Source: a bacterium | GTDB taxonomy: Bacteria > Zhuqueibacterota > Zhuqueibacteria > Residuimicrobiales > Krinioviventaceae | Assembly: GCA_963674595.2 (NCBI GenBank) | Contig: CAXXFV010000010.1 | Span: 1 to 64,000, forward strand | Length of the DNA stretch: 64,000 nucleotides | Direction: 5' to 3' | In this document: one piece after another, positions 23,723 through 56,399 of the stretch | Layout: each line of letters opens with the position of its first letter | Position numbering within the stretch: position 1 is the first letter of the stretch | Notes under the pieces: model-generated | Seen by the model: only the letters and a program-made list of their open reading frames with translations | The model's database searches: none | Told to the model about the DNA's origin: nothing | Position numbers and translations under genes: made by a program

Positions 23723-23743
23723 ATTTAAAATTTCCTTTCTAGT

Positions 23744-24145: not shown

Positions 24146-24157
24146 TAAGCCTCCATT

Positions 24158-24478
24158 TTACCAGGTGTTTTTTTCAAAAATAATGGAATCGATATCCTCG
24201 TCATCCGGTGTTGAAACCGGTTCTGTTTCATCCTTTAATTTGATTTTAGCTTCTTCATATTGTGAGAGCATTTTATCACAAAAATCTCTCATCCTCCTGA
24301 TGGCTGTATAACCTTTTATATCAATCGTCCGGGTCGGATCGTCTTTGATGCCCTCTTTGGTATCGATTTTAATTCCGATCTGGATTCTTAAATCATCGGG
24401 ATTATTCGTGACAATACCGGTAACAACCGGGTAGACATAATACCCATCAAGCTTTAAACCGAGTTTTTTATAATCCAT
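24158..24478 (-). CDS. Phage hypothetical protein
   Basis: Tightly packed ORF with RBS. Confidence 0.6.
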   Translation of the reverse strand: MDYKKLGLKLDGYYVYPVVTGIVTNNPDDLRIQIGIKIDTKEGIKDDPTRTIDIKGYTAIRRMRDFCDKMLSQYEEAKIKLKDETEPVSTPDDEDIDSIIFEKNTW

Positions 24479-24501
24479 TATCTTCCCTTTTCAGATAACA
24501 C

Positions 24502-25677
24502 TTAATACATTCTCCCGGAGGTCATAATCCGGTTATTAGAGCCTGAAGTCGCCGCAGCAACAAAAATCCCATTACCATAAGCAACGGCCCGCCAGGCGTT
24601 ATCGGCGGCACTGGCGCGGGACGTCCATGTGATACCATCCGTGGAAGTCATAACGCGGTCACCCGTGCCGCTATTGGCAACGGCAACGAACAGCCCGTTT
24701 CCATAGGTAACGGCCCGCCAGGCATTATCGGAAGCACTGGCGCGATATGTCCAGTAAAGACCCTCCGGGGACGTCATAACACGGTCACCGGTGCCGGAAG
24801 CGGCAACAGCAACAAACATCCCATTACCATAGGTAACAGCGTACCACTGGTTATCAGAAGCACCCATGCGGGAGGTCCAGGTAATACCGTCCGTAGAAGT
24901 CATAACACAGTAAACAGTACCATTGGAAGCAACGGCAACAAACCGCCCGTTACCATAGGCAACAGAACTCCAGTACTCATTATCGGCAGCACTGGCGCGG
25001 GACGTCCAGGTAATACCATCCGGCGATGTCATAATTTGGTGGCCTGTACCGGTAGTACTCGCAACAGCAACAAACAACCCATTACCGTAGGTAACAGAAT
25101 TCCAGGAAATATCTGCGGCGCTGGTACGGGACGTCCAAGTAATGCCATCGGGGGACGTCATAACACGGTTACCGGTACCACTAGCCGCAACAGCAACAAA
25201 CAGCCCGTTCCCGTAAGCCACAGAGGTCCAGGAATTATCGGCAGCGCTGGTGCGGGACGTCCAGTAAACACCATCCGTAGATGTCATGACGCGGTTACCA
25301 ATCCCGGAAGCAGAAACAGCAACAAATATTCCGTTGCCATAGGCTACAGACCGCCAGGTATTATTCTCCGGGTTATTACGTGATTCCCATATAATACCCC
25401 GGTCAATGAGATAGCCGGTGAGTTCTAAATTTCCTTGCGGGTCTAAATAAAACGTTTGTGCGCCGGTCGAGTTGTAGACCATAATGGCCCAAACACCATC
25501 CATATTTTTTAATACGATCGAACTTGTATCATAGTCTGCGATAGTCGAATGACTTTTTTCATAATTAGAATCAAACCACACCTGACCGTATATTCCCCGG
25601 TTATGGGTATAGGTAATCTGGCAAAAAGCCGAAACGCTCATCATGACCAAAATCAACAACATTAACCATTTTTTCAT
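24502..25677 (-). CDS. Seven-bladed beta-propeller (BNR/Asp-box repeats) with N-terminal signal-like sequence
   Basis: Seven ~43-aa repeats W..V.YGNG.FVAVA..GTG.RVMTS.DG.TWT. Confidence 0.85.
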   Translation of the reverse strand: MKKWLMLLILVMMSVSAFCQITYTHNRGIYGQVWFDSNYEKSHSTIADYDTSSIVLKNMDGVWAIMVYNSTGAQTFYLDPQGNLELTGYLIDRGIIWESRNNPENNTWRSVAYGNGIFVAVSASGIGNRVMTSTDGVYWTSRTSAADNSWTSVAYGNGLFVAVAASGTGNRVMTSPDGITWTSRTSAADISWNSVTYGNGLFVAVASTTGTGHQIMTSPDGITWTSRASAADNEYWSSVAYGNGRFVAVASNGTVYCVMTSTDGITWTSRMGASDNQWYAVTYGNGMFVAVAASGTGDRVMTSPEGLYWTYRASASDNAWRAVTYGNGLFVAVANSGTGDRVMTSTDGITWTSRASAADNAWRAVAYGNGIFVAAATSGSNNRIMTSGRMY

Positions 25678-25706
25678 ACTGTATTCCTTCCTGTTAAATA
25701 AAAAAG

Positions 25707-25973
25707 TTATGCTCCAACAAAACCAATTAAATCCGGTCCCTGTATTCGACCGATTTTTATTCCATCTTTATATATATCATAAGCCAGTTCGGTATCACCA
25801 TCCGAGTCCGGTTTATATTCCGACAGGCTGGCCAACTGATTGGCATTTATAGCTCCGGTCGGATAAGCCTGATCTGCCGGCTGATATTGTATTGTGTGAG
25901 TTGTGGTGTCCGGTTTCCCGGTTGTTCCGTGTTTCATGCTTATTATCATGTATTCAGCAGCCCATGTGCTCAT
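25707..25973 (-). CDS. Phage tail-region hypothetical protein
   Basis: Position and packing. Confidence 0.6.
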   Translation of the reverse strand: MSTWAAEYMIISMKHGTTGKPDTTTHTIQYQPADQAYPTGAINANQLASLSEYKPDSDGDTELAYDIYKDGIKIGRIQGPDLIGFVGA

Positions 25974-25975
25974 TT

Positions 25976-26404
25976 TTAAAATCTCCCTAACGGCATAAAA
26001 TCAAATGTAAATGTGGCCTGGTCCCCGATTGTTTCGTAAAAAGTGACAATAACCGGTTCTACGGCATTGTATTTCCCCTCTATCATCGGGATTTTAATAT
26101 TCGGGTCAACCCGGACAATAACGGATTCCTTTGGACGGTCCTTATAGTCCCGGAACAGATTGATGTAATCCGTGACGCCTCGTAAGGTTTCAGCGCTCTG
26201 GATATAGGAGGAATCATCCGGGTTGAAAAGATACAACGTGTATTTTTTCCACATGGTCCCGGTCAGATAGATTATTGGCCGTCTGTTTTGTAGTATCTGA
26301 ATATCATAGGCCTGGTTCTTTTCAATTTCTAATCTCATGGCCGTCTGATCATCGAATAAAAGCGTACCGCCCGGCCAGGTTAATTTCATCACGTCATAAA
26401 TCAT
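25976..26404 (-). CDS. Phage tail-region hypothetical protein
   Basis: Position; loosely resembles 29530..29916. Confidence 0.6.
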   Translation of the reverse strand: MIYDVMKLTWPGGTLLFDDQTAMRLEIEKNQAYDIQILQNRRPIIYLTGTMWKKYTLYLFNPDDSSYIQSAETLRGVTDYINLFRDYKDRPKESVIVRVDPNIKIPMIEGKYNAVEPVIVTFYETIGDQATFTFDFMPLGRF

Positions 26405-29400
26405 TTAATCAAATATCCCGTTTTTAACATATCCCAATAATTCGACGTTAAAACCGTCTGACAATTTAAATCCGGATAGTCCGATCAGCTCGACATCAAG
26501 TTCAAAACCCGGCTGGTCACTGACCACATGTTGCCGGTCACCCAGTCTGGCCAGAGCACCCAAAAGCGTCAGGTTGTAACGGACCAGTTTTACTCCCCCT
26601 TCCCAAAACCTGTATTTGTTTTGAGCGATAAATTGGGCCGGAGTAGATGAATAGAATCCGGGTAAATAAAGTTCTTTGGTGCGTTTATAACCGTTGCGGA
26701 TAAATGACGTGTTCTCAGCATTGGTAGCCGGATAGGTCAAGGTGTATAAAAAAGACTCCTTCGCATAATCAAAGCCATAATAGACAATGATCTCATTAAC
26801 AAAATCCAGCTCCTCAATCTGCGGGTCCGGTATTTTTAAGGCATTGTTTGAATTGATTTCCGGCAAGGTTTCTCCGGCAGGTGAGGCTTTAAAAATGTGG
26901 ATATGATGAACGCCCCAGTTATCCTGAAACTCAAACCCGTCAAAATGGGCCGAAATCACTTCAAGGGCCTGTAACACGTTCATGGCCGTATCAAGCGTCA
27001 GGGAAATATTCAAATTGTTGTCATCACAATAGGAGAACTCGTTATCAAAAGTATATTCGAGTTCATTCCCGGTATCAACGGCAGCACTTTGTTTGAGCTC
27101 AACCTGCGCGGCCATGGAATAAGAGTTTGTCAGGGCTGATACACCGATCTGAACATACGGCGGGTAGCTGCTCAGGGTATCATTGCCCGTACTGATGACA
27201 AGGTCCTCTGTTGTAGTCCCTTCGGTAATAGTAAGAGTCGCTCCGGTCTTTAGCAATGTGGGAACATTAACTTTGATCTTGATGGCCGTAGCCCCGGAAC
27301 CGGCCTTCTCATATAAGGTGCCAACGGCTTTATTTCCGAAATAAGAAGATGACCCGATTAAACCGGTTCCTATCTGATTGGCTGTTAATAAATCATAAAT
27401 GGCCTGTACCGGATTTTCATCAACCCATGAAATCCCGGTTAAAAAGGACAGCTTGTAGCCTTCCAGAATCAAACCGCCCCAGGCAGAAGATGGTATCTGA
27501 ATAAATCCGGGTAATGTTAAATTTGAGCCTATATTTCCTGTCGAGCTGATACCCGGACCGGAAATGGTATAATCCGTATCACTGGTAAATTCGATATTCC
27601 ATCTTCCGACTTTGCAGCCGTCATAAACCGTTACCAAAGTTCGATCCAGTTCACCGGCTCCGAGAACATTAAACGCCTGTGAATAGGAACCGTTCTCAAC
27701 AGCCACGGCAGCCACATTGGGAAGAACACTAATATCACTGGATTGAAAGCTCAATACCTGAAACTCAAAACTCTGTGAGGCTGTGTCACTGTTCGAGTCC
27801 GTCACCTGTACGGTAAAATTAAAGGTCCCTGCCTGTGTCGGTGTGCCGGATAAAATGCCGGCAGTGCTCAATGTCAAACCGTCCGGCAGAATACCACTGA
27901 TCACCTGAAAGGTGTAACCGCCCTGACCGCCGGATGCTTTTATGGTTGCCGAATAAGCAGCCCCTTTAACGCCGTTGGTGACAACGCTTGTGGCAATATC
28001 CAGAGCGCCTTCATAAAATCTCATGTAATCGAATTTGCATTGAAAATTGGTAATATTCACGGTACAGGCAAAGATACCGACATAATCAATGGTCCCGCTT
28101 TGCGTTGAGTTACCCATGTGTATCCATGCGTCACCCTCATTGGCCTTGTAATTAAAAGAGAATGTGCCGGAGCTGTACCTGATCTTTAAATAAACTGTGT
28201 TGCCGCCCGCATAAGTGGTGATATAATCCAAATTTCCGACAGTCGTTCTTTTGGCAAAAATCCGGGTGCTTAAATTATCAAAACCAAAAAGCACATAATC
28301 TTTTGATGTTGAAAATTTAACCGCAAGCCCGGCCATGATGCCGGTCCAGTCCGTGTAGGAAATCAAATCCACTCTACATTCAAGCACCCAATTTGATGTT
28401 GTAATCGGGTCGGCAGGTTCGGTAAAATAGACTCTCGGCCCCTGTTCATAACTGGAATCCAGTTTAAAACTGCCGTCCAACTCAAAGGTCAAATAACCGT
28501 CATTCTCACTAAAAGAAACGTCTGCGCTGTTCGGATTAACAAGGTCCAGACCGGTATACCCCTGACTCTCAACCAGTTCCGTGTTGGCCGGTTCCGGTTC
28601 GACCTCAAGGGTGATGAGCTGGTTTTTTGATTCACCATCATCATTGGTCACTTTTAACGTAAACTCGAATGTCCCGTCCTCAAGCGGTGTGCCGGATATG
28701 ATCCCGGTTGCTGTGTTTAAGGTGATACCGGAAGGCAATGCACCGGATTCAATCTCCCATTCGTATGGTGGTAAGCCCCAGCCACCTTCCCATTCAACAG
28801 AGTTTTCCAGGGTGCCGTTTGCGCCGACCCGCATGAGTTTTTTATCGGAATCCCTGTCGGCCCCGGCCACATCCACATCAAGGGCCAGTTTGTTTGTATT
28901 TGCCAAAATAAGCGTTGTTCTGCCGTCCTGACAAACCGGCGGCGCGATGATCCGGCCACGGTAACAGGAAATCCATGTTTCACAACCCACAAACTGCAGT
29001 TTGATCAAAAAGTCTTTTTTGGAATAACTCTGCGTATAAACCGGCGTTCCGGCATCATAGGAGTTTACTAAAGTATCGATGGGAAGGATTGTCCGGGATA
29101 AGGCCGTTCCACTGAAATCATTGACAATGACAACCTCTTGATTTGTGCCGTCATTTATGATTAAAGTTTCTCTCACCTGCGGGCTGAATCCTTTTTTAGA
29201 TGTTACGGTAAAAGAAGACGCCCCGGAACTTACGCCACTGCCCAGCTCACCATATCCCTGGTAAAACAAACCGTTCGGGTTCAACGGATTTAAAAATCCG
29301 TCCGGATCATTTAAAACCATCGTGATCTCCTGTATCATGGTCTGGTCCGAATAGGCGATATCCAGCTCCCGTTCATTAGAGATCGGCGTAACAGACACCA

Positions 29401-44230: not shown

Positions 44231-45634
44231 CTATAAACCCCTCGTATCTATATCAGCATAAGAAACAGATACTTTTTCACCCAACAGGAAATCGATGGAT
44301 TGTTTGGCCAGATGTCGCTTTTTCCGGTTGACGAAATTTTGAGCTACCCGTTTAATAGAGGCATCTTTATTGATCTTGGATACAAATCCCAAACCAGCCA
44401 CATATTCAACAGCTTCCTGTTCTTCCATCAGTTCATGGTCCAGTAGCCATTCCAGGGCCTTTAATTCCTTTTCCAATGCAGAAGCATTTAAGTGTCTGGC
44501 TCGTGCCATTTCGGTCTCATCAAACAGTCCCACCGGGTTCCATTCATGGTACCATTTTGCACCGGTATACCCCTCAAACATTAAAAAGGTGTTGGTGACT
44601 TTTTCTATGACAGAATCAACAGAATCCCGTCTCTCTTCAATACTGGAAATCAAAAGGTCTTTCTGGTCTTCACTCATTTTGAAATTAGAGTTCCAGTTGT
44701 ACAATCCGAAACTAAAAGGAGGTAATTCTGTCCGGGCGATGATCTGCTCTATAATGATCCTGGAAGGGATTTCCATATCCATTAATTGAGCACCTTCACC
44801 CAAAACTTTAACACTCACTTTGGATTCACTGGGAACAGCTCCGCCAATATCCCGGACCTGACCGCGTTTGCGGTCTTTGTTCACATCTTCCAATTGGGTC
44901 AACAGCTTATCAGCAGAATCTTTCAGGTCAGTATAATTTGTACCTCTCCCTCCTTCAATCAGTAATACAAAAGTCGGATCACCGATCCTGACAACAGCGT
45001 TCTTGATGGATTGCTGTATTCTTAACAGTATCTCGGCAACAAAAGGCATGGAATTAAACAGACTCACACCCTGAGGATGGCCGTCTCTTAAATCAAATGT
45101 CAAATACTGAACAAATTCCGGGTGTTCTAATATAACAGGTTTTGCAGCATCATGAGGTAAGGAAGCCAGCCATAGTCTACCGTCTTTCCGGATAAAACGA
45201 ACCTTGGAAGCATCACCGACTTTTAACCGGTCCACACCATTCAAACCGGCAAAAGGAACGGTCTCAAAGACACCATAACCATTGGCCAGAGCAGAATCAT
45301 AGACTTGTTGTAAACACCCATGTAATCCCTTGTGAAAATATCCGACCCTGATCTCTTTTTTGAAGTTGTTCAAGGCTTTTAAGACATTCGGATTATCGCA
45401 ACGGTATTCAAAATCACCGATCAGTCTCCGGAGCTTTAATACAGCTACATCTAAAATCGGGATGGCTTCACGAAGAATATTATAAATCTTTAGATTGTAC
45501 CTTAACGGCTCATATCCGTTTAAATATGTCTGAAATGGGCTGTCACTTGCAGAATAAAGCTGGGATTTAACAATAACGTTGTTGGATTGTTTCGGTGGGA
45601 AATATTTATTAAGATTGAATTTTGGAAGGTTCAT
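44231..45634 (-). CDS. Portal protein
   Basis: 467 aa; LREAIPILD.A..KL, P.GVSL; upstream of the gpF-like gene. Confidence 0.85.
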   Translation of the reverse strand: MNLPKFNLNKYFPPKQSNNVIVKSQLYSASDSPFQTYLNGYEPLRYNLKIYNILREAIPILDVAVLKLRRLIGDFEYRCDNPNVLKALNNFKKEIRVGYFHKGLHGCLQQVYDSALANGYGVFETVPFAGLNGVDRLKVGDASKVRFIRKDGRLWLASLPHDAAKPVILEHPEFVQYLTFDLRDGHPQGVSLFNSMPFVAEILLRIQQSIKNAVVRIGDPTFVLLIEGGRGTNYTDLKDSADKLLTQLEDVNKDRKRGQVRDIGGAVPSESKVSVKVLGEGAQLMDMEIPSRIIIEQIIARTELPPFSFGLYNWNSNFKMSEDQKDLLISSIEERRDSVDSVIEKVTNTFLMFEGYTGAKWYHEWNPVGLFDETEMARARHLNASALEKELKALEWLLDHELMEEQEAVEYVAGLGFVSKINKDASIKRVAQNFVNRKKRHLAKQSIDFLLGEKVSVSYADIDTRGL

Positions 45635-45643
45635 TAACTGCCC

Positions 45644-45680
45644 ATATATAGAACGTACTCAAACAACACGTTCTATATAT
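45644..45680. repeat. 13-bp perfect inverted repeat just upstream of the portal start
   Basis: ATATATAGAACGT (45644-56) / ACGTTCTATATAT (45668-80). Confidence 0.8.
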
Positions 45681-45767
45681 AGCAGAATAGGGGTAATTAA
45701 TCAATATTTTGTGGGTAATTAACCCATAGCTAGTGATAAGGCAGTTTCTCTTGGATGGAATTGCAAT

Positions 45768-45890
45768 AAAAAAACGGACCCATGAGAGACAATGCACTAT
45801 GGAAGGTAGGTTCGGGATACTCCCTAGTCTTCGGTTAGTACAATGCAGTCATGTAGTCCGTTAATTCATAATCCCTCTCTGGTGATTAAG
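45768..45890 (-). ncRNA. Candidate structured sRNA/attenuator upstream of the portal operon
   Basis: Nested stems AACGGAC/GTCCGTT, CATGA/TCATG, TGCATTGT/ATAGTGCA, TAGG/CCTA, ending in T7; preceded by RBS + ATG AAT TAA. Confidence 0.55.
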
Positions 45891-45898
45891 TTAATTAA

Positions 45899-45927
45899 AT
45901 AATACAAACTTTATTAAACCCGTGCAA
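45899..45927 (-). promoter_or_regulatory. sigma70 promoter TTGCAC-N17-TATTAT
   Basis: Read directly; upstream AAATTCTTTA.AA block shared with the promoters at 20030 and 52128. Confidence 0.65.
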
Positions 45928-46038
45928 GCAGATTTTAAAGAATTTATCAAAGTATATTCGATTCAGACTATTATAAATGTATCACCTTTATAAAAATTCT
46001 TAATATCCTGGTATGTGAATTGTTTATACAACAAAATA

Positions 46039-46494
46039 TTAAGTTATCATTAATGATTTATCATCAATAATTAATTTACCATTTTTACATGCTGGACAAT
46101 TAAATTTTTCAATGTATCCCGGATAATAAATCATTTCATTCTTGCAGGTTGGACATTTGATAGCAGAGAAACTAAAACATTCAGTAGGTAATTTTGTCTT
46201 TTCAGGATTATCTTTTTTATAATCTTTGTAATTTTCTCGATATTCTTTTTTAATATTTTCCAAATTCATTTCCCATGGATTATAATTCGCTTCAATAAAC
46301 TCGACAATTATCAACTTTTTGTATTCAACACAATGCGGACAATAAGCATTTATATACAATCCATCTGCTTTCTGATTACCAACCGGATGTGGTAAAGCTA
46401 TCATATTACCAAATTGGAATTTGAATTCATGGGGACCAGAGACGGAAATTTTAAAATTGCAGTCGACACAGATGAAGCTTATGTAAGTTGCCAT
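46039..46494 (-). CDS. Multi-CxxC zinc-binding hypothetical protein (accessory)
   Basis: Four CxxC pairs; AT-rich. Confidence 0.7.
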   Translation of the reverse strand: MATYISFICVDCNFKISVSGPHEFKFQFGNMIALPHPVGNQKADGLYINAYCPHCVEYKKLIIVEFIEANYNPWEMNLENIKKEYRENYKDYKKDNPEKTKLPTECFSFSAIKCPTCKNEMIYYPGYIEKFNCPACKNGKLIIDDKSLMIT

Positions 46495-46893
46495 ATTTTA
46501 TCCTATCTTTTCAAATGTTTTCATTGACAGTATAAAAAGGTTAATTGAAAGGAGGATAAATAAATACCCAAATATAAATAAAAAAATCTTCTCAATTTAT
46601 AACGAGGTGCATAATGCTTTTCACCAAATAGACACAATGCCATTCCAGTTAACTTGAATGTTTTCTTAAACCAATTCCAACAATTAGGAGTATTGCACCT
46701 AATAAAATTTTTAACACGTTAATTAGTACTTCCATTACTTTATAATTCCAAATCTAAATAATTTTATTTACTATACAAATTCTGCAATATTGATTAAGGT
46801 CAAAAGTAGTGTAAAAATCTAAAGTCTTAAAACACAATAAGGTTTTACGAATATGAATTAACATGCATGAAATGGTATTTTGCTTCATTAACT

Positions 46894-47157
46894 TTAATCA
46901 TTGTTTTCTTCATCTTCATCCAGTACATGCCTTCTAAAAATGCTAACAGAATCTTGAGAATCTATATTGGGATCATTAACTAATTTATCAATTTCTGAAT
47001 CAGAAGCTTTTAAACCTACCTTGAAAGAAATAGTAGACCAAATTAATAATAAAACACATATTGTCTTTGCAACAATATTGTCAAATATTAATAAAATTTA
47101 AGTAGCAATTAAAACTTTAATTATTCCTACAGCTATTGGCACATATCTTGGTTTCAT
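46894..47157 (-). pseudogene. Small two-TM membrane protein gene with in-frame TAA at codon 20
   Basis: MKPRYVPIAVGIIKVLIAT*ILLIFDNIVAKTICVLLLIWSTISFKVGL...; frame continues to TAA at 46894. Confidence 0.5.
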
Positions 47158-47297
47158 TTTATATACAATCCTTTGGTTAAAGATAAATTATCTTGAGAAA
47201 TCAAGTTTTATTGATTCCTATATTATTTTACATAAAGCCATATAATAACAAGCTATTTCATCAAATGATTCGAATAATAATAATTTCATAAAATATA

Positions 47298-47738
47298 TTA
47301 CGTGGAGAATTGTGTTGCAATTTCAGAAGAATAGCTAGCTATCTTAGTCCAGTAAACAATCCAGCAGATTAATCCAATTATAAATATAACAGTACCAATT
47401 GTTGGGATAATACTGCACAAACCTAAAACACACCACGCTATGCCAAGTGATTTTCCTGGATTTGGTTCTTTTATAATGTTTCTACGCTTAAATTCGTTAT
47501 CTAAGGAAGTAGCAATTCTTGAGACAACTATAAACTGCCAGATAAGATTGAAAAACGGAATCAACATTAACCATACCTGGCTTGGATTCATAGCTCGACT
47601 CAATGGATCACATCTCTCGAGGCATTTCTGCAAAGTTAGTAGAAAAAAAATTAATGGTATTAAACTAATTAGTAGAAAAAATATAATAATTAATTCAGGT
47701 CCACTTGGGGACATCATTGCGAAGATAGATGCTATCAT
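47298..47738 (-). CDS. DUF4328-like membrane protein
   Basis: R.MNP.QVWL.LIPFFNLIWQF motif; RBS GGAG. Confidence 0.7.
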   Translation of the reverse strand: MIASIFAMMSPSGPELIIIFFLLISLIPLIFFLLTLQKCLERCDPLSRAMNPSQVWLMLIPFFNLIWQFIVVSRIATSLDNEFKRRNIIKEPNPGKSLGIAWCVLGLCSIIPTIGTVIFIIGLICWIVYWTKIASYSSEIATQFST

Positions 47739-47874
47739 TTATATTCTCCTTTTTTTGAAAATTATAATTGCCAATTAATTTCATTTCCAGCGAATTTCTA
47801 TATTTTTTGATTTAGTAAATCACTTTGCTAAGCGGTCAAAAAAAACATAACGTTTCATTGCTTTTTCCTTATTG

Positions 47875-47997
47875 ATCATACAAAGGTGCAGTAGAACCGC
47901 ACCGTACAACTTGAGAAGTAAGCAAAATTAGATGCTGACATTAAAATTTCTTGATTTCATCGTCCGCCCTGCGGTCAGCTGCATTAAAAGTTAGCAC
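47875..47997 (-). repeat. attC site with degenerate 3' core
   Basis: GTGCTAAC..TGCAGCTGACCGCA...TGCGGTTCTACTGCA..GTATGAT; the inverse core is the exact complement of GTTAGCAC (48945-48938) upstream of the same gene. Confidence 0.7.
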
Positions 47998-48043
47998 AAT
48001 ATACTATAGTTAATGTTTTATTATTATATTAAAAAACTATATA

Positions 48044-48928
48044 TTAAACAGGATCTTGCTTTTCCCAATACTTGCAGGATTGAGGAAACAAAGACCGCTT
48101 AATAATTTGAGTTGAAAATTGTTTTTCCCAAACGGCTTTAGTTTTTTTATGAATTTTGCAAGGGATATATTCAATAAAAAGCATGACTGGGTACATCCAT
48201 AATTCACTTTCATACTTTTCAATTTTACGATAATGTTTGCAAGTCTTACACCACATTAACTTGTCTAAATCCGTTTGATGTGCAAGGCCGGGATTATAGT
48301 CAGCTCCAATAATATTACCAAGCTTTTGCATCGATTTAATATACTCTTTTGCATCATTAAATTTTTGATTTATCTCGATTGAACTGTAAGTCTCTTCAGT
48401 GTTTACTCTACTAACACTATTCTCATTTTTTATTTTCAACAAAAAATAAGCGGCTAATATCAATCCAATTACAATGAATATGCTTAATATTGCTGCTCTA
48501 AAATTATATTTGCTTGCCGAATTATTTATTTGATTTAATTCATTCTTTGCTTCTTTTAATAGTTTTCGATGATTTGCTAAGCTTTGCGAGTACAAATTCA
48601 AAACATCTTTTTCAGCTTGTTTTTCAGCTTCGCAAATTTCAAAAGCTAATTTTCTTGATGAGTCCGGTGAAATTCCTTGCTTCGAAAATTCAAAAGTCAT
48701 TTCCTTTATTTTTCTATTATAATCTTTTGTTGCTATCTTCATATTAAAATCGTCTATAGATTTTTCGAAATAATTAATATTTTTACTCAATGCTTCAACT
48801 CTTTCAGACCAATATTTTTTGGGATTAATTGATTTTTTTATAAAATCATCAGGGACAAATAAATTATACACAATAATTAATATTATTGAACTTATAATTA
48901 TATGTTTTAACGATATTTTTATTTTCAT
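48044..48928 (-). CDS. Two-TM coiled-coil protein with C-terminal Cys cluster, gene cassette
   Basis: TM - coiled coil - TM - WCKTCKHY...PC...CKYW. Confidence 0.7.
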   Translation of the reverse strand: MKIKISLKHIIISSIILIIVYNLFVPDDFIKKSINPKKYWSERVEALSKNINYFEKSIDDFNMKIATKDYNRKIKEMTFEFSKQGISPDSSRKLAFEICEAEKQAEKDVLNLYSQSLANHRKLLKEAKNELNQINNSASKYNFRAAILSIFIVIGLILAAYFLLKIKNENSVSRVNTEETYSSIEINQKFNDAKEYIKSMQKLGNIIGADYNPGLAHQTDLDKLMWCKTCKHYRKIEKYESELWMYPVMLFIEYIPCKIHKKTKAVWEKQFSTQIIKRSLFPQSCKYWEKQDPV

Positions 48929-49094
48929 ATTAATTCCGTGCTAACATAGTTTTAATATATTCAGACAGTCATATTTACAGTGAAAACATTTAGTTTCATG
49001 GTGTAGTTTTACTGCATTTTTTAATTGTATTTTTATTTAGATTTAAGAATGGGGCGGTAGAACTGGCACCCTATTTCTGAGCAAAAAATATTAT

Positions 49095-49700
49095 TCATTT
49101 CAATGAACTTCTTGATGAAATTACCTCAATACGTTTATAATATTCTTCTTCTGTCTTTAATGATAGCAACAGAAATACAAAGAAACCTAAAAAATTAATA
49201 GCAAAAACAATAACAACCTGATAACAACATTTGTTAAATATCAAATAAATCAAATTAATTAAAAACATTAAAAAATTTGCACCGCTTAAATTCCATCGCA
49301 TATGATTTAAAATATTATAGCGTTCAATATACTCGTAATATGCATTCGTATTTTCATTAAATATAGCAACTTCTTTATTTAAAATATCTTCTATTTTATT
49401 ATCAATTGAATATTTCAGTATTTTTTTAATTTTGCTTTCAACTTTTGTTTTTTCAAAAACAACATACATTAATGCGTATGTCAAATGACCAAATGTATAT
49501 GAAAATAGTAAAAGTATAATAAAAAGATATGGAAATTCTTTCCAATAATTAAATATAGATTGTTCATAGTAAAAATAATCGATGAAAAATAACTCAAACA
49601 GGATAAGGGAGCCGCTTAAAATATAAACTTGTATTTCACGAGCTATATGTTTGAATGCCTTTATTAGTTGTTCCGTGATATTTGTCATTGCTTCTTCCAA
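49095..49700 (-). CDS. Four-TM hypothetical protein (accessory)
   Basis: Hydrophobic pattern; SY..GH motif; preceded by GTTGGGT core-like heptamer. Confidence 0.7.
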   Translation of the reverse strand: MEEAMTNITEQLIKAFKHIAREIQVYILSGSLILFELFFIDYFYYEQSIFNYWKEFPYLFIILLLFSYTFGHLTYALMYVVFEKTKVESKIKKILKYSIDNKIEDILNKEVAIFNENTNAYYEYIERYNILNHMRWNLSGANFLMFLINLIYLIFNKCCYQVVIVFAINFLGFFVFLLLSLKTEEEYYKRIEVISSRSSLK

Positions 49701-49791
49701 TTCACTCTAGGTTGATTTATATTTTTGAACCCAACATTGTCACCAGGGTTTTGTTAAATGGTGGTTTATAAACACATATCAAGCCTACTAT

Positions 49792-50070
49792 TTACCTACT
49801 TTTATCTTTTAAAATTACGACCAATCCAATTGTAATAAGGCATATTGAAATAAGTTGAGCATAAAAAGTTGGAGTATGCAAAAAAACAATATTTGTAACT
49901 CCACTTGCTGTGCTTTTAACTTTGAAGATAGCAAATGGTTTGTACCCCATAGGTACATTTTTATCACCATAATCTACATAACATGGTGGCACCAAAAATG
50001 AGAGTATAATCAGTAGTATGCCCATGAGAATTACTATCTTCTGTTTGGAATTCAAATTCATATGTTTCAC
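49792..50070 (-). CDS. Small two-TM hypothetical protein
   Basis: LNSKQK...PP...GY pattern. Confidence 0.65.
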   Translation of the reverse strand: MKHMNLNSKQKIVILMGILLIILSFLVPPCYVDYGDKNVPMGYKPFAIFKVKSTASGVTNIVFLHTPTFYAQLISICLITIGLVVILKDKSR

Positions 50071-50190
50071 CTTTTTAAATACCTGCTTACATAGTTCATT
50101 ATATTTATATATCCGTATTTACTGTGGCGAGATATTGTCATTTGTTCCAAAAGTAAATCGCTTCCACCTCAATTATATCTTATTGAAGTG

Positions 50191-50314
50191 GTCTAACATT
50201 TGGCATAATCGGTCGCTAACAAACCGATATTTTATTTGTATTTTGTTTTTTACCAACTTTTAAACTGCTCAAAATGGACCGCTGAAGCGGTCCGCGTTCA
50301 GCCCGTTGTTAGCC
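50191..50314 (-). repeat. attC site (124 bp)
   Basis: GGCTAAC AACGG GCTGAAC GCGGACCGCT...AGCGACCGA TTATGC CAAAT GTTAGAC; begins 4 nt after the stop of 50319..51281. Confidence 0.8.
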
Positions 50315-50318
50315 ACTA

Positions 50319-51281
50319 TTACTCACCAATTATCGTTTCGAAAGGTAATGTAGCTCTTATAGTTGCCTTTAACTCATTTAATGCTAAATAAATATTATCG
50401 AGATCCCAAATAATAGTTGTATGGTGATTTGTATCAAAATGTGGTTTTGTTTTAATATCATCAAAAGCTTTCTTTTCACATAAATATATTACTGGTTTTC
50501 CAAGACCCTCAGCATATCCTGCTTCCCAATATGCACCATTATTATTATGGGAAAGGTCTGCAAGTAAAATTCTTGATTTCCTGATTTCTACTCTTAACTG
50601 ATTATCAATTAATCCTGCTTGTAACACATCTTTTAGTATTCGTAATTCAAAGCCTGTTTCTTCAACTGCTGGGACGAAATATTCTCTAAATATTTTTATC
50701 ATCTTCTCATCATATTGCATTGCCATAAAGGATATTTTACTATCAGACCCTTTTATTAATATTTCATGATACTTTTCCCAACCATTAAAAGTCAGACCAA
50801 ACTTGCATATAGGACCATCCTCACGTGCATCACCACATTTTTTGAAATATATTAACCCTCTATTTGAGAGTTCTGAAGAAATATAATCTACATCTGAAGG
50901 AAACTTAGCACCAATTATTGAGGTAACATGTCTACCAATCCTTTCAATGTTTTCAGCATAATGTGTTAATGTCGAACCTAAAAATAAAATCAGATTTTCT
51001 GATTGCTCATGTAATGTAGGTAAATTAATCTCATATGGTATTTTACTGAAAATATTAACAGTAACTTTTACAGGTTTATTTTCTGATTGATTATTCCTTA
51101 TCCAATAACTTAATACCCACCTCCAGTCTTCGTGTGGATCATCAGGATCTATCATTGCTTTAATTTTTTTTTCTAATTGAAATTTCCCGCATCTTGGGCA
51201 ATCGATGGACAAAACATTATTTACAATATCATCGTAAATTTTATTAAGAAGTGTTGATTTACATATAAGGCATTTCTGCAT
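50319..51281 (-). CDS. Zn-finger/winged-helix protein with C-terminal nucleoside 2-deoxyribosyltransferase/TIR-like domain; candidate defence effector
   Basis: CxxC..CPRCG; FMAM, ADLSHNNNGAYWEAGYAEGLGKPVI, HFD. Confidence 0.8.
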   Translation of the reverse strand: MQKCLICKSTLLNKIYDDIVNNVLSIDCPRCGKFQLEKKIKAMIDPDDPHEDWRWVLSYWIRNNQSENKPVKVTVNIFSKIPYEINLPTLHEQSENLILFLGSTLTHYAENIERIGRHVTSIIGAKFPSDVDYISSELSNRGLIYFKKCGDAREDGPICKFGLTFNGWEKYHEILIKGSDSKISFMAMQYDEKMIKIFREYFVPAVEETGFELRILKDVLQAGLIDNQLRVEIRKSRILLADLSHNNNGAYWEAGYAEGLGKPVIYLCEKKAFDDIKTKPHFDTNHHTTIIWDLDNIYLALNELKATIRATLPFETIIGE

Positions 51282-51476
51282 TCAACTTCTCCTATTATAA
51301 CAATGTTAATTAATTATATGAACCAATTGCCCCTATAATGCTAATTACCAGACATACAGAATTGGTATTGAATTATCATAACAGCTAAGCCAGAATTTGA
51401 TCGCTTATGAGCTATGCCATATTTTGCGGTACAACGGCAAGCAAAAATAGCATTAAGAAATAAAACACTTAAATAT

Positions 51477-51701
51477 TTATGAACAAGCTCGAATAATCAA
51501 TATTACAATAAGTATTGTAAATGCAAATTTTGCGAAACTCCAAATTCCCATTAACAAATTTAGACCTGCTGCCATTATTGCACCAACTAATCCATCTTCT
51601 TGATATGATTCTAAAACCATCATAATTGCAATAAATATACGCCATAATACTACAATACCAATGTAAACAAGAGCTAACCAAAATAATATTTGACCGATCA
51701 T
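51477..51701 (-). CDS. Small membrane protein
   Basis: Hydrophobic 74 aa with RBS AAGGA. Confidence 0.6.
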   Translation of the reverse strand: MIGQILFWLALVYIGIVVLWRIFIAIMMVLESYQEDGLVGAIMAAGLNLLMGIWSFAKFAFTILIVILIIRACS

Positions 51702-51772
51702 TTTAGATTCCTTTTTAAATCAGTAAATAAGGATAGTTATTGAAATAAATATTAGTGCAATAACACATAGTC

Positions 51773-52147
51773 AAGCTACCTTTATCAAGCAGCAAGTATT
51801 TTCTAATATTGGAAGATTTTGTTTATATGTGCTTTCCACAGATTTATAAAGAAACAATTTCAAATACATACATTTTGCTAGGAAAATATCTTGATTAATA
51901 TTGAACATAAACTGAACCAACCCAATAATTTTGACCGGGAAATAACAGGAATATGACTATCTAACCGACGCAATTCTTTCCTCGTAACTGTTTTTACTTC
52001 CCATATATTAATTTTATGTGGTAATTCAGTTAAAGGCTTTCAGGACTCCCATTTCCGACCATATTGTCCTAAAAAATCTTCCTTTTACCTGACAAAATAA
52101 TGATACAAATTTATAATTTTTCCCGCAAGTTGTTTTTAAAGAATTTA
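51773..52147 (-). promoter_or_regulatory. Promoter (TTGCGG 52128-52123, N17, TATCAT 52105-52100) plus conserved leader, copy 2
   Basis: Homologous to 19720..20048. Confidence 0.7.
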
Positions 52148-52171
52148 ATTTTTTTTTCTCTTCAAAAATAT

Positions 52172-52197
52172 AAAAGCCCCGCATCACTACGAGGCTT
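52172..52197 (-). terminator. Intrinsic terminator ending the terminase operon
   Basis: AAGCCTCGTA-GTGA-TGCGGGGCTTTT. Confidence 0.75.
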
Positions 52198-52228
52198 GAC
52201 AAACGATTAAGTCCCCCCTTCTAAACCC

Positions 52229-52423
52229 TCAATACTTGTAATAAACATCTCTTAAATAACTCACAGAAAACCCGCTCTTTCTAGAGACCTCCCGGATTGC
52301 ATCACTTGCCGGACTTTTAGAGCCACTCTTTTCAAATACTTTACTCATTTCGTAAATATGGTTTTTTAATATCGTCAATCGTTTCTTTGTCGACTTTAAC
52401 TTTGGATTTATTTGTACTGGCAT
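52229..52423 (-). CDS. Small HTH-like protein
   Basis: AIREVSRKSGFSVSYLRDVYY; RBS AAAGGA. Confidence 0.55.
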   Translation of the reverse strand: MPVQINPKLKSTKKRLTILKNHIYEMSKVFEKSGSKSPASDAIREVSRKSGFSVSYLRDVYYKY

Positions 52424-52444
52424 ATTATTCCTTTCTATTAAAAT

Positions 52445-54124
52445 TTATCTGGCCTTTCCAGCTCTGCTCCACACCATCGATCCCCCGATAGTTCCACCAA
52501 TTTCTTCACTGATTAAAGAATATGCTGCTGCATGAAGTAAGTGGTCTCCACTGATGGGCTTGCTCCAAACCTGACGATTTGTGTTTGGGTCAAAATACCT
52601 AACTGGTAATGTAAAATGGTCCAATAACTCACCGTCAGATACTTTTCTCCAGTTTCTCGGAAAGATAAATCCATCCTGTTCACTTTTTAAAATATTCTTT
52701 AAAACACGATCAAGCGCTTGTGTCCGGTCAAGAGCGATAATTTTATTATCAATGTCAACTGTCTGATCTTGCAAGCTCCCCCCTTTTTTATACCAACACA
52801 GCCATACTTTACCAGGTCGGGATGCTTGCAGTTCTTTGGCTTTTGTGGTATCATATTCACCATCGATTGTACATACTTCGACATTATATTGATCAATTAA
52901 AAAATCCAGTGTGTCCCAATCATAAGCTGCGCCACAAGCAACCAGTCGTTTTCTTCCATTATATCGTTCCCAAATGAAATAGTGATGCCGTCCACCCGGA
53001 TCAACTCCCATAAAAGTATTGTTTCCTGTCGATGGCATGAGATAATCATCTTTACATTTTTCCATCAAAGCTTCAGTTATTTTACTTCCCTTTGGAGCAA
53101 AAGCACGGCCCAGGTTTGAGTTGTGAAACAATTGTGTCTTTGTGGTATCTCCCAGTGCTTCCTGAAATTCATTCCACAATTCCAAAAGATCAGTATCAAA
53201 ACTGATCAACCTTGAAAATCGGTAACCGACTCTTGGTTTATCCGGATATTTAGCAACCCATTCACCGACCCAGGGTTCATATATAATCTTTTCACATTTA
53301 TCACAGATGATTTGAGGCTTTCCCTTTTCTTCTTTAATGACTTTATAAATCAAACCTTCAGAATCAACCTGACGAACAACATGTTTAAACCAATCCAGTT
53401 CAATGTATTTATTACAATGCTGACACCGGGTCAGGTATCGGGATTGATTTGTAGACCGGTATAAACCATCCACACCACAATTTTCAACAGTGGGTCGTGA
53501 TGAATAGCGGAGCATTTTATATTCAGATGCTTTCAACCTGTCTTTTAACTGGTCCAGGTTGTCCATGTCTGATTCATCATATTCATCAACAAAAGCGATA
53601 TCTACAGGATTTTCTACAAACTCTGTCCTTGAATTCGATCCCACAAACCGCATGGTCCCTTTACCATAATGTTTCTGTAAAACACTGTCACTTTCACCGC
53701 CTTCATCCAAATGACTTTTGTACAGGGGAACATAACTAAGAAGTTTGTCAATCCGGTCATGTACAAAGTTTGATCTCAGGGTTTGGTTCGGCATGACATA
53801 CAGACCACGTAATCCACTGGAAACATAGTGGAGCAATTCAACTAAAAGACGCTCCGTAATTCCGACCTGTACCGGCTTGATAAACACCATAAACTGAGGC
53901 ATTTCTGTTTTGGGTTTTATTCCTTTGGCGATGTCATTGAAAAAGCCTGGCGGAGCATATAAATCCTGCAGCCAGTCCCGATTGATAAAAGACATGCGCT
54001 TGAAATGCCGGTTTAAATGATGTTCTCTGGCCAACCCGAACACCGGAGCCAGGGTATTAATACTCTCTCTGAATTTTACTAACTGAGTTAATGTCAATGA
54101 TGTTAAATACTCAGGAGTGACCAT
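52445..54124 (-). CDS. terL: Terminase large subunit (lambda gpA family)
   Basis: KPVQVGITE Walker A variant, FVDEYD Walker B, SRPT, C..C Zn site, MGVDPG nuclease, DHLLHA. Confidence 0.92.
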   Translation of the reverse strand: MVTPEYLTSLTLTQLVKFRESINTLAPVFGLAREHHLNRHFKRMSFINRDWLQDLYAPPGFFNDIAKGIKPKTEMPQFMVFIKPVQVGITERLLVELLHYVSSGLRGLYVMPNQTLRSNFVHDRIDKLLSYVPLYKSHLDEGGESDSVLQKHYGKGTMRFVGSNSRTEFVENPVDIAFVDEYDESDMDNLDQLKDRLKASEYKMLRYSSRPTVENCGVDGLYRSTNQSRYLTRCQHCNKYIELDWFKHVVRQVDSEGLIYKVIKEEKGKPQIICDKCEKIIYEPWVGEWVAKYPDKPRVGYRFSRLISFDTDLLELWNEFQEALGDTTKTQLFHNSNLGRAFAPKGSKITEALMEKCKDDYLMPSTGNNTFMGVDPGGRHHYFIWERYNGRKRLVACGAAYDWDTLDFLIDQYNVEVCTIDGEYDTTKAKELQASRPGKVWLCWYKKGGSLQDQTVDIDNKIIALDRTQALDRVLKNILKSEQDGFIFPRNWRKVSDGELLDHFTLPVRYFDPNTNRQVWSKPISGDHLLHAAAYSLISEEIGGTIGGSMVWSRAGKAR

Positions 54125-54567: not shown

Positions 54568-55254
54568 TTAATAACTATTCTTTGAGGTTACATATTGAAA
54601 GCCATCTCCCCCGCTTCCGATCATTGTCAAATCCGGTCTAAACAGCGGAGGCCTCTCGATCGACGGTTCCCAGGTTGACAACTCTTGCTCCTGCGGAATC
54701 ATTACAATCTTTCCGTTTTGAATATCAGATAAAACTTTTCTAAATAACCTGACACCCATAGGTTGTAATTCACGCCGCCATAGTGAAGAAGCCGTATCAT
54801 CTGACCTTATAAAACAAAAGTCATGTGCCGCAATTGGTCCGGCATCGACATTATCTGTTAACCAATACACTGTGCCACCCGTTACTTTTTCATTCATCCT
54901 GATGGACCAATATATAGCATCACGACCTCTATGAAGCGGCAGCAATGAAGGGTGGAAACCGATCGCTCCAAATTTTGTTTTCAACCTGGTCTTTTTACTT
55001 ATGAAATCATGAGAATGGGCAGCAATAATCAAATCCACATTTTCCGGTAATGATTCAGCATTTAACTTTCCAGCTTCAACAAGAATGACTTTATCCCTGA
55101 GTGCAGTATGATAGAGCCTGTCATATTTTCCCGTGTAATTCGACGGGGCACTGACACCGACAATATTATATCCCTGTTCTTTGACCATGTCATAGACCAG
55201 TTTTCCAAAATACTTTTGACCTGTAATAAATATATTAATATCCTGTGGATTCAA
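54568..55254 (-). CDS. Formyltransferase (N10-formyl-THF dependent, Fmt/PurN fold, N-terminal domain only)
   Basis: FHPSLLPLHRG, GGTV.W...VDAGPI. Confidence 0.9.
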   Translation of the reverse strand: MNPQDINIFITGQKYFGKLVYDMVKEQGYNIVGVSAPSNYTGKYDRLYHTALRDKVILVEAGKLNAESLPENVDLIIAAHSHDFISKKTRLKTKFGAIGFHPSLLPLHRGRDAIYWSIRMNEKVTGGTVYWLTDNVDAGPIAAHDFCFIRSDDTASSLWRRELQPMGVRLFRKVLSDIQNGKIVMIPQEQELSTWEPSIERPPLFRPDLTMIGSGGDGFQYVTSKNSY

Positions 55255-56399
55255 TTTTCACCTCGGGTTGATGTTTTTGTTTGATTGCCAATGTATTTAA
55301 AACTTTGAACCGCACGAAAATGCCCACCATATCCGGCACCACGTATGTTCCCTTTCCCGGTTCGTAAAATACTTTTGATTGAAGAAAGTTTGTTATCACC
55401 ATATAAGGATGCTTTTTTATGAATCCATAACGGAGATCTTCTTAAATAACCACACAGTTGCGGGTGACTGGTATGAAAAAAAGTTGAATACTTTTTGAAA
55501 CATCTGCCAAAGCCTTCCAGGTGATATTGTGCAATCCAATTTAAAAAGGTTGTTCCGACACCAGCCCCTTGCCATTCCGGCATAACGACCAACCGGGTTG
55601 CCCGATAAGCATGAGCAGTAAAAAGCGGACTGACCATGACATGTGAAACAAGCTCACCATCGACAGTGCCCACAAAAGCTTCTGCAGCCGGGGGAATCGG
55701 TAAATCTAAATAATAATGCGGTTTAAAATATTTCCAGTAACTATAGTCTGTCTTCCTGATTTCGAGTTCAAATTTGGGACGTCGCCGAAGACGCCCCCGT
55801 TCAAAATTTTTACTTTTCGTATCAAATACCCAATCAGGCTCGAGCCAATCCAAAACATCATAATGCGGTGTTAATAAGACACATTTGCCATTCGGATTTG
55901 AGCGACGCCAGGACTTTTGAAAAGCTTGAGCACCTATTTTAGCGATTTGTCTGTCAACCACACTGGTGAACTCATCAATAACGACTTGTTCAGGTTTTTC
56001 ACAAATAATTCGGGCCAAACCAGCCCGGAATTTTTCACCATTACTCAAAACATGAAAAGGTCTTAACCATGAAGGCACATCTCCAAGTCCAACTGCCGCC
56101 AAAGCACCCGTGACATTATCAAATGAACCATCAGGGATGATACAATCGATAATCGGTTTATCTGCCGGCCAACCTTCTTCATAATTATGTATCAAATTTT
56201 CTTTAAAAATCAATTTACCGATGGAGGTTTTGCCGCTTCCGGACGGACCGACTACAACTCCTATATTCCAACTGTCTTCAATATCAATATCAGCAATCAA
56301 ATCAAAGTTACAACCACTCTCAGCATTAAATAGACTCTTAACACGAGCAGCCCTGTAACTGGTAAAATCAGAACATTTATTATGTACTTTTATTTTCAT
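55251..56399 (-). CDS. ABC-type ATPase fused to GNAT acyltransferase
   Basis: GPSGSGKT, LSNGEKFR, IDEFTS; RLVVMPEWQGAGVG acyl-CoA-binding motif. Confidence 0.9.
   Translation of the reverse strand: MKIKVHNKCSDFTSYRAARVKSLFNAESGCNFDLIADIDIEDSWNIGVVVGPSGSGKTSIGKLIFKENLIHNYEEGWPADKPIIDCIIPDGSFDNVTGALAAVGLGDVPSWLRPFHVLSNGEKFRAGLARIICEKPEQVVIDEFTSVVDRQIAKIGAQAFQKSWRRSNPNGKCVLLTPHYDVLDWLEPDWVFDTKSKNFERGRLRRRPKFELEIRKTDYSYWKYFKPHYYLDLPIPPAAEAFVGTVDGELVSHVMVSPLFTAHAYRATRLVVMPEWQGAGVGTTFLNWIAQYHLEGFGRCFKKYSTFFHTSHPQLCGYLRRSPLWIHKKASLYGDNKLSSIKSILRTGKGNIRGAGYGGHFRAVQSFKYIGNQTKTSTRGEN

Follow-up and report, generated by a model that had tools for sequence, protein, structure and literature searches.

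A probable eroded integron-type platform at the terL-portal hotspot of sibling prophages in an uncultured bacterium

We describe here a stretch of 64,000 nucleotides at the start of contig CAXXFV010000010.1 of assembly GCA_963674595.2 (hereafter the window), and in particular the block of some 6 kb that separates two prophage genes within it, terL, which encodes the large subunit of the terminase, and the gene for the portal protein. With moderate confidence we take this block to be a variable cargo region, the eroded form of an integron-type platform seated in a terL-portal hotspot of a family of sibling prophages. One of the siblings in the same assembly carries, at the place homologous to the window block, a small complete integron with all of its parts in one direction. 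The window is linked to integrons because of this complete integron at the homologous sibling locus, the attI-like junction modules within the block, and breaks of homology that fall at G/TTA (the stroke marks the point of crossover). The window block itself is a decayed relic that holds genes for five small membrane proteins and two zinc-ribbon proteins.

Coordinates without a prefix refer to the window, which lies on contig C10; C3, C9, C13, C25, C26, C29 and similar handles denote other contigs of the same assembly (6.6 Mb in 37 contigs, a bin with a completeness of 97.6% and a contamination of 5.1%).

Results

A complete integron in a sibling prophage

An earlier note on this stretch, made from the sequence alone, had supposed that an integron integrase (IntI) of the host serves the block. 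A search of the whole genome with the integron integrase family TIGR02249 yielded 13 matches, of which one, a full integron integrase at C3:115823-116767 (453.7 bits), exceeds the curated cut-off of 265 bits. It is not a chromosomal IntI of the host, but belongs to one of the sibling prophages, a defective one. None of 14 control genomes gave a match over the cut-off. The C3 gene is an open frame of 341 codons with no stops, and its product aligns over the full length (residues 19-328, 298 bits) with the solved integron integrase 2a3v, without a gap across the segment that is absent from Xer recombinases, at which matches to Xer proteins split in two. On the contig of the window the only matches to the family reach 27-35 bits at 66617-67174, beyond the end of the window, and no intI lies beside the block.

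The C3 intI gene stands directly 3' of a second copy of the phage module, consisting of terL (97% amino acid identity), a 64-amino-acid gene and a promoter-leader module that immediately precedes intI. DNA homology between the window and C3 (91%) extends from 57073 down to 51944 and ends at the start of intI. On the minus strand of C3 the leader and intI are followed by some 170 nt of spacer with ACTATGTTAGCG at the end, and then by a gene of 419 amino acids (CHAP-like and type IX secretion tail domains), an imperfect hairpin of 135 nt, a gene of 322 amino acids (DUF5677) and a second hairpin, after which come the pre-portal sequence of the window and the first 229 codons of the portal gene. 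The first hairpin (attC1) runs from CGCTAAC to GTTAGGT, and its R'' box is the exact complement of the 5' junction of the first cassette (GTTAGCG / CGCTAAC).

Both hairpins were recognized by a covariance model of attC sites, R2, that was built in this analysis from integrons of other phyla only and is not the model of IntegronFinder. Its source loci surround some 80 relatives of the C3 IntI (41-73% identity), mostly from Cyanobacteria, Acidobacteria and Proteobacteria; the seed consisted of 11 cyanobacterial sites of 87-89 nt, and R2 is the rebuild from 55 matches (E<=0.01) in 71 of these loci. Searches with default filters covered 200 kb of the assembly (the window and eight loci), and a search with filters off covered 45000-53000 of the window. 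With default filters attC1 scored 36.1 bits (E 2e-6) and attC2 25.6 bits (E 1e-3), and the first-round model, R1, had already detected attC1 at 27.6 bits. The locus C3:112999-117005 thus has what a complete integron has, namely an intI of the integron subfamily with the extra segment, and cassettes that end in attC.

As to the relatives of the C3 enzyme, the second-best among the closest comes from a KSB1 bin (69%), and 25 of the 61 genomes searched in the class of the host, its own genome included, hold an integron integrase over the cut-off. A search of viral_contigs with IntI gave one weak generic recombinase (27% identity). The attC model was also run on the short sequences flanking intI, both in six related genomes and at the three closest IntI loci; it gave no match at E<=0.1, which is uninformative on the orientation of their arrays. 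Near the end of contig C6, at C6:1756-1945, two short stretches are 60-61% identical to residues 20-50 and 59-83 of the C3 IntI; by their sequence they are possibly a decayed second intI.

Junction modules and the break at G/TTA

The canonical crossover point of integrons is G/TT, and three modules in the window block resemble attI sites that end at such a point (Table 1). The first, of type 3, heads the block after the leader; it shares ~28 nt with a locus at C29:~212.7 kb, and the two diverge after GTTA. The other two, Y1 and Y2, are copies of a module of ~40 nt that was found six times, twice in the block and at four other loci, two of which have it directly 3' of a leader copy. All six align up to ACTATGTTA and are unrelated beyond it. 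The attI region of C3 matches C29:6883-6727 with 90% identity along 157 nt, and all likeness ceases right after ACTATGTTA; the genes that follow these two copies differ, though both end in an attC supported by the model. Two further copies of the C3 attI type (on C9 and at C29:~97 kb) share the last ~45 nt. In all, homology ends at G/TTA at 12 att-like sites (four of type 1, two of type 3 and six of the Y type), and the three sequence types are unrelated to one another except for an ACTATGT-GTTA core. Judged by sequence, this common break is the pattern to be expected of attI sites that have received different cassettes.

The earlier note had pointed out that the open reading frame (ORF) at 48044..48928 is flanked by a core and an inverse core that are exact complements, and this is confirmed. 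The octamer GTGCTAAC occurs twice on the two strands of the window (1.05 expected), at 47990-47997(-) and 48938-48945(+), and these sole two copies flank the ORF in inverted orientation; the junction octamer of Y1 is, in other words, the exact complement of 47990-47997. It is unlikely that the pair came to flank the ORF by chance. From this arrangement the ORF looks to be the best candidate for a cassette captured at Y1 as a circle. The note went further and took the complementarity for the established footprint of circle insertion by an integron integrase; the footprint is present here, as it is for the first cassette on C3, and the C3 enzyme is its putative maker.

Over the whole window the core ACTATGT is not enriched, with 8 matches against 5.55 expected. 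The block has three of them on its coding strand, where by our estimate ~0.27 would be expected by chance, and a fourth follows the second leader copy of the window.

The promoter-leader module

A repeat of ~240 bp, of which BLAST finds 44 copies in the assembly, forms the left border of the variable region and supplies the promoter that the earlier note had assigned to the block at 52100-52128. Across 35 aligned copies the -35 box TTGC and the -10 box TATnAT are invariant or nearly so, some 190 nt are conserved, and the copies diverge beyond; the assignment therefore stands, and as far as sequence can tell the conserved boxes at 52128-52100 would read into the block as an integron promoter reads into its cassettes. 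A generic promoter scan did not list 52128-52100 (45 sites found, 45.5 expected). The 38 copies examined precede unrelated genes, with diverse ORFs downstream, as is expected of a putative mobile promoter. Within 330 nt 3' of the leader and on the same strand, 9 of these 38 copies are followed by ACTATGT, against 0.30 expected (binomial P 1.6e-11), and none has it on the opposite strand (0/38).

The leader gave no Rfam match at E<=1 and was not found in 40 related genomes, and the consensus fold of RNAalifold has 4 pairs (-0.2 kcal/mol, 0 compensatory changes). No convincing RNA structure emerged for it: a hand-drawn hairpin of 7 bp is kept in 83% of the cells of the alignment, but only 3 cells are compensatory, and as many pairs changed on both sides as observed are attained by 12 of 500 shuffles. 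An 18-nt leader motif had 51 single matches in genome_contigs, from unrelated taxa, and 6 in viral_contigs, which we read as the chance matches of a short word. A second leader copy in the window lies at 19820-20062 (-), with an ACTATGT core at 19665-19671 (-), ~150 nt on, and then an ORF of 277 amino acids; it is possibly another landing pad.

The terL-portal interval and its counterparts in sibling prophages

Profile searches identify terL and the portal gene, and the observation in the earlier note that these are split by about 6 kb of AT-rich, co-oriented and unrelated genes is borne out: the block of 6.2 kb has a G+C content of 24-33%, against 38-47% in the flanks, and contains seven such ORFs. 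The terminator proposed to insulate the block is also present, as a terminator-like hairpin of 10 pairs and a T run at 52197-52174. The proposal that the portal operon restarts from a promoter at 45927-45899 is not confirmed. A long hairpin and T run (~45866-45770) intervenes before the portal start, and because of this the promoter may drive a small RNA rather than the portal operon. The stretch 45770-45927 (-), in which the promoter is followed by a hairpin of ~100 nt and a T run, looks like a small terminated RNA and has no Rfam match. At 45770-45951 the sequence is 80% identical to C3:43730-43839, just beside a CRISPR array of 60 repeats on C3, and on that likeness it could be a small RNA common to phage and CRISPR locus.

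Close copies of terL (97-98% identity) and of the portal gene occur on C3 (twice), C9 and C25, and a distant pair on C26 (terL 63%, portal 49.5%). Homology between the window and its siblings has its left end at 51917-51944 and resumes at 45951 (C9, C25) or 45891 (C3), the borders coinciding in all close siblings. The six terL-portal intervals measure from 4.5 to 16.7 kb and have no cargo genes in common. The earlier note suggested a comparison of relatives for variable gene content here, with junctions at G/TT; content does vary among the six intervals of this one assembly, and breaks at G/TTA are seen at the 12 assembly sites described above. In deviating composition, in a promoter and terminator of its own, in conserved phage genes on each side and in content that varies among relatives, the interval is a cargo hotspot.

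Two public runs, none of the listed holders being an RNA run, contain the block; they come from one sample, from which the assembly was probably made. Their contigs cover the block and break at 45834 and 52258, with a depth of 6.7 in the block and 17-26 in the flanks (2.5-4x); the breaks and the excess in the flanks fit several variants that share flanks. No joints inside the block and no excised circle appeared in the public contigs, the only joint being one that skips 79 nt at 52147-52227. Beyond the assembly, a search of genome_contigs and viral_contigs with the single terL sequence gave no confirmed relative, a two-sequence terL alignment gave 2 weak matches in metagenome_contigs (29% and 25% identity) and none in genome_contigs, and a search of 60 related genomes found terL in none.

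Several features of the sibling copies deserve record. The portal copies at C3:111920, C3:66461 and C9:149577 (corresponding to 44948 of the window) all break off at one and the same base, 3' of codon 229, where a 37-nt sequence resembling a CRISPR repeat takes over. The portal copy of the integron-bearing prophage abuts the far end of a CRISPR array with 72 repeats of a related 37-mer (C3:99371 to 111843), beside which C3:103752-108050 encodes a 990-amino-acid fusion of reverse transcriptase, TPR, archaeo-eukaryotic primase (TOTE) and Mu Gam-like domains, and then Cas1 and Cas2. The terL copies at C9:140400 and C3:29375 match only from residue 54; their frames are open over 537 and 522 codons, but the N-terminus is another one; upstream of one of the two, the DNA resembles the region of the portal start.

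Candidate attC sites in the block

The earlier note had named attC-type sites at 50191-50314 and 47875-47997. For the first (site A) the fold is upheld, none of 200 shuffles being as good on either strand (z -3.3 and -3.6); its R boxes are paired and closed by a stem of ~11 bp, and the L stem has at least four non-standard pairs in the model alignment. Support from the model is marginal: with filters off, site A is the best R2 match on 45000-53000, on the coding strand, with 13.9 bits and E 0.046. The second (site B) has a 6-bp stem that resembles the 5' half of the C3 attC sites, and is at best an attC remnant. Elsewhere R2 with default filters matched C25:13226-13304 (24.2 bits), where the C25 interval ends, and more weakly C9:145509-145647 in the C9 interval (18.4 bits, E 0.08); a match of 14.0 bits in locus L010 (E 1.1) was taken as noise. 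With filters off, the C29 attC, a control, scored 25.2 bits. For a cluster of attC sites without an integrase (CALIN), IntegronFinder reportedly asks that its attC model recognise two attC sites or more; on 45000-53000 of the window R2 gives a single match under E 1, site A, and none at site B.

Two ad hoc scans for attC were discarded. The first, which asked for complementarity of 6/7 in the R boxes, missed the true C3 sites because the R' tail of an attC within an array belongs to the next cassette. The second, by constrained folding, returned dozens of matches on both strands of AT-rich DNA and was non-specific. A duplex-energy scan of the whole genome recovered three strong attC sites at -16 to -22 kcal/mol. 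A GC-rich hairpin motif (GGTGC..GCACC, with a GGTTCTAC-like loop) lies 3' of block genes at 47885-47903 and ~49045-49065 (-), and again right after leader copies at ~C29:233.8 kb and C13:62.9 kb, and may act as a terminator that is portable.

Cargo genes and other features

No confident family was obtained for any of the seven cargo ORFs in family, PHROG and PADLOC profile searches, and none has a paralogue elsewhere in the assembly among the matches listed. Five of the seven carry hydrophobic segments and the other two are Cys-rich zinc-ribbon proteins. The 320-amino-acid protein matches PHROG 16139 (function unknown) at 3.2e-20, and its C-terminal domain resembles Pfam PF05014 at 2.2e-5 (under the cut-off) and a PADLOC TIR effector at 2.3e-4; with 4691 homologues at E<=1e-5, the protein belongs to a large uncharacterised family. 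The earlier note had the cargo consist of membrane and defence genes. The membrane part is sustained by the five proteins just mentioned; the defence part is not, since that TIR-like match is weak and confined to one of the seven, and PADLOC gave no confident match for the seven window proteins or for the two cassette proteins of C3. The 64-amino-acid gene downstream of terL had no match in family and PHROG profile searches.

Outside the block, 24517-25364 contains internal repeats (72-76% identity), 23043-27662 (4.6 kb) is 92% identical to the end of contig C22, and 54568..56399 (-), upstream of the terminase genes, encodes a formyltransferase-like protein (228 amino acids) and a 382-amino-acid protein with weak ABC-ATPase and GNAT matches.

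Table 1. Features of the terL-portal interval, in order of transcription on the minus strand.
Feature	Position	Strand	Evidence or remarks
terL, terminase large subunit, 575 aa	52445..54172	-	PHROG 675 2.6e-73; Pfam GpA_ATPase 3.5e-23
64-aa gene, kept 3' of terL in all sibling copies	52229..52423	-	tblastn 89-92% identity at C3:27594, C3:117068, C9:141990, C25:5245
Terminator-like hairpin and T run closing the terL operon	52174..52197	-	10 pairs, 5 G-C
Multi-copy promoter and ~190-nt conserved leader; left border of variable region	51917..52128	-	-35 52128-52123; -10 52105-52100
Type-3 attI-like junction module	51761..51788	-	ACTATGT core 51771-51765, then GTTA
Cargo ORF, 74 aa, 2-3 hydrophobic segments	51477..51701	-	no family match
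Cargo ORF, 320 aa, N-terminal Cys-rich zinc ribbon and C-terminal nucleoside 2-deoxyribosyltransferase/TIR-like domain	50319..51281	-	
Site A, degenerate attC-like	50189..50316	-	R'' GGCTAAC 50314-50308; outer R' GTTAGAC 50197-50191; inner R' GTTAGCG 50220-50214
Y2 attI-like junction module	50083..50126	-	core 50095-50089; degenerate GTAAGC; direct repeat with 48930-48982
Cargo ORF, 92 aa, two hydrophobic regions	49792..50070	-	
X motif, short conserved intergenic element	49715..49770	-	also C25:9146-9193, C13:65938-65973; R2 6.4 bits, E 4.3
Cargo ORF, 201 aa, 4-5 hydrophobic segments	49095..49700	-	
Y1 attI-like junction module, ending G/TTAGCAC	48938..48982	-	core 48950-48944
Cargo ORF, 294 aa, 2 hydrophobic segments, Cys-rich tail	48044..48928	-	
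Site B, attC remnant	47875..47997	-	R'' GTGCTAAC 47997-47990, short stem; terminator-like hairpin 47903-47885
Cargo ORF, 146 aa, 3 hydrophobic segments	47298..47738	-	weak DUF4328
Cargo ORF, 151 aa, 9 Cys, zinc-ribbon-like	46039..46494	-	
Right border of variable region: promoter 45927-45899, then long hairpin and T run	45770..45951	-	hairpin -14.4 kcal/mol
Portal protein, 467 aa	44231..45634	-	PHROG 30703 1.3e-58

Discussion

The reading that we favor may be set out as follows. The platform would consist of a strong conserved promoter with its leader of ~190 nt, followed by an attI-like site at which crossover takes place at G/TTA after the ACTATGT core. The C3 sibling keeps this platform in full, as leader, intI, attI, cassette 1, attC, cassette 2 and attC, and the window copy would be a mosaic, lacking the integrase, of three units that each join an attI-like module to one or more genes. 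At least one of these units, that of ORF 48044..48928, would have been inserted as a circle, presumably by the C3 IntI, and the attC sites would have decayed since, one to a marginal site and one to its 5' half. Expression would proceed from the leader promoter through the block, insulated from terL by the terminator. Any new capture or excision would need IntI in trans and is probably rare, if it occurs at all. Exchange of whole blocks by homologous recombination on the conserved flanks probably operates as well.

A number of observations weigh against this reading. The Y modules lie inside the array with no leader upstream, which simple insertion by attI x attC recombination does not explain, and recognition of the ACTATGT-GTTA sites by IntI is putative, proposed from their sequence. 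In the window no attC is found by R2 with default filters; the 13.9 bits of site A are far under the 24-36 bits of the sibling sites, and the E-values of R2 are in any case rough. Site B, for which the earlier claim of an attC is not confirmed, has no R' partner, a fold near that of shuffled sequence (z -0.3 and -0.5) and no R2 match at E<=10. At the duplex energy of site A (-13 kcal/mol) the genome holds 73 sites, against ~126 in the reversed sequence, and thus no enrichment. Among leader loci with 3.2 kb downstream, a default-filter attC match is present in 2 of 36, and most leader-driven cargo therefore does not consist of classical cassettes. Large ORFs (724-1048 amino acids) in three of the sibling intervals are unlike typical cassettes. 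Finally, the sibling copies may be paralogues in one genome or strain alleles binned together, and the comparative support may come from strain variants, because the phage family was not found outside the assembly.

The strongest competing explanation is that of a generic hotspot for phage cargo (morons), in which blocks are swapped by homologous recombination in the flanks, the C3 integron is one cargo among many and the window genes were never cassettes. The borders of the variable region, alike in all siblings, are as this explanation would have them, as are the breaks and the higher flank depth of the public contigs; the distant C26 prophage also has a gap of 6.1 kb, in which no copy of the leader was found, a confident attC is lacking in the window, and the leader is a promoter module reused before many unrelated genes. 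We nonetheless judge it unlikely, though a contender. It leaves unexplained why homology stops at G/TTA at 12 att-like sites, why one ORF has an exact 8-nt complement between its junction and R'', and why ACTATGT is enriched 3' of leaders. Furthermore, it is compatible with an integron origin, as recombination in the flanks can move arrays that an integrase has built.

The integron-type reading may be extended to the assembly as a whole, a picture that we offer tentatively and hold to be rather improbable. In it the phage-borne integron would be 'distributed', with one co-directional IntI and many pads, each a promoter-leader followed by ACTATGT and then G/TTA; there would be at least 10 such pads in the assembly, several of them in the terL-portal hotspot, and Y1 and Y2 would serve as cassette ends instead of attC. 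Were this the case, cargo captured in one cell could be packaged and delivered, together with its expression module, to others.

The earlier note regarded the block as an active capture hotspot, that is, as a working CALIN today, with IntI acting in trans and functional attC sites at 50191-50314 and 47875-47997. An intact intI is present in the same assembly, site A is the best attC-model match of the region, and sites derived from attI can serve as cassette recombination sites in class 1 integrons, as described in the parts of a recent study drawn on here (PMC12901181). The attC tests do not support the claim, however, as the window sites are marginal or failed, site B in both fold and model, leaving a single marginal attC. 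No cargo paralogue is among the matches listed, the public contigs show no joints inside the block, and the IntI copy and the window prophage may lie in different cells, the assembly being a bin with some contamination. We therefore consider present-day activity quite improbable. That the features of the block arose by chance in AT-rich intergenic DNA, which readily yields GTTA/TAAC motifs and hairpins without any relation to integrons, is very improbable indeed: the many equal hairpins on both strands in the constrained-folding scan, the lack of enrichment over reversed sequence at -13 kcal/mol and that of ACTATGT in the whole window speak for it, and against it stand the sibling integron at the same locus, the ~40-nt Y repeats common to four other loci, GTGCTAAC at just the two ends of one ORF and the P value for the core after leaders.

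The eroded platform that we propose would bear on a wider matter. Bacteria capture genes chiefly by means of integrons, and it is chiefly phages that carry genes from cell to cell, yet few cases are known in which the two are combined. Here, in a little-studied phylum, one hotspot offers a complete copy for side-by-side comparison with several that lack the integrase. Two questions become accessible in this way: do phages maintain platforms for the capture of their accessory genes, and do attI-type sites suffice by themselves as the ends of cassettes in integrons other than clinical ones?

Comparison with known systems

The window block resembles morons and mobile promoters in its AT-rich accessory genes with a promoter and terminator of their own between conserved late genes, and in a leader that is reused before unrelated genes. 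To our knowledge, morons and mobile promoters are without site-specific recombination sites; here, unlike in those systems, 9 of 38 promoter modules precede an integron-type crossover core. The block also resembles a CALIN, since its small genes are unrelated, lie in one orientation and are accompanied by att-type sites but by no integrase, and differs from one in having a single marginal attC.

The delta-attI-type cassettes of mobile integrons are bounded by attI-derived sites within the array and are recombined by IntI1, as described in the parts of that report used here (PMC12901181, Gonzales Machuca et al. 2026), and Y1 and Y2 inside the window array look analogous. Those cassettes belong to class 1 and class 2 clinical integrons and are experimentally proven; the modules described here are candidates drawn from sequence, of three unrelated types that share ACTATGT-GTTA only.

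In the Treponema integrons intI is transcribed toward the cassettes (PMC3607928), and the C3 intI, which shares its strand with leader, attI and cassettes, likewise reads toward the latter. Those of Treponema, however, are large integrons of the chromosome and not of phages, and no shared promoter-leader is described for them in the sections of that report considered here.

The closest parallels are found in a screen of 10,705 phage genomes, which according to the portions of the report used here identified complete integrons or In0 elements in four temperate phages, all of Proteobacteria, and 17 CALINs (PMC9892861, Qi, Rajabal, Ghaly, Tetu, Gillings 2023). Among these, the cryptic Shewanella prophage M16-3 has a complete integron as well as a CALIN, flanked by tail, capsid-scaffold and terminase genes (PMC9892861). 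The likeness to the present family lies in intI, attI, attC and cassettes within a prophage beside structural or packaging genes, in an integrase-less array alongside a complete one, and in a carrier prophage that is defective. In contrast to M16-3 and the surveyed phages, as far as that report describes them, the host here is an uncultured member of the FCB group, intI is co-directional with the cassettes, and the terL-portal hotspot is fixed and common to the siblings; the window copy, moreover, has attI-like modules in place of a series of attC sites. Phage-borne integrons and CALINs are thus already known, and what is new here, in comparison with those accounts, is the phylum, the fixed terL-portal location in siblings, the fusion with a reused promoter-leader, and the presence of several attI-like types over at least 10 loci.

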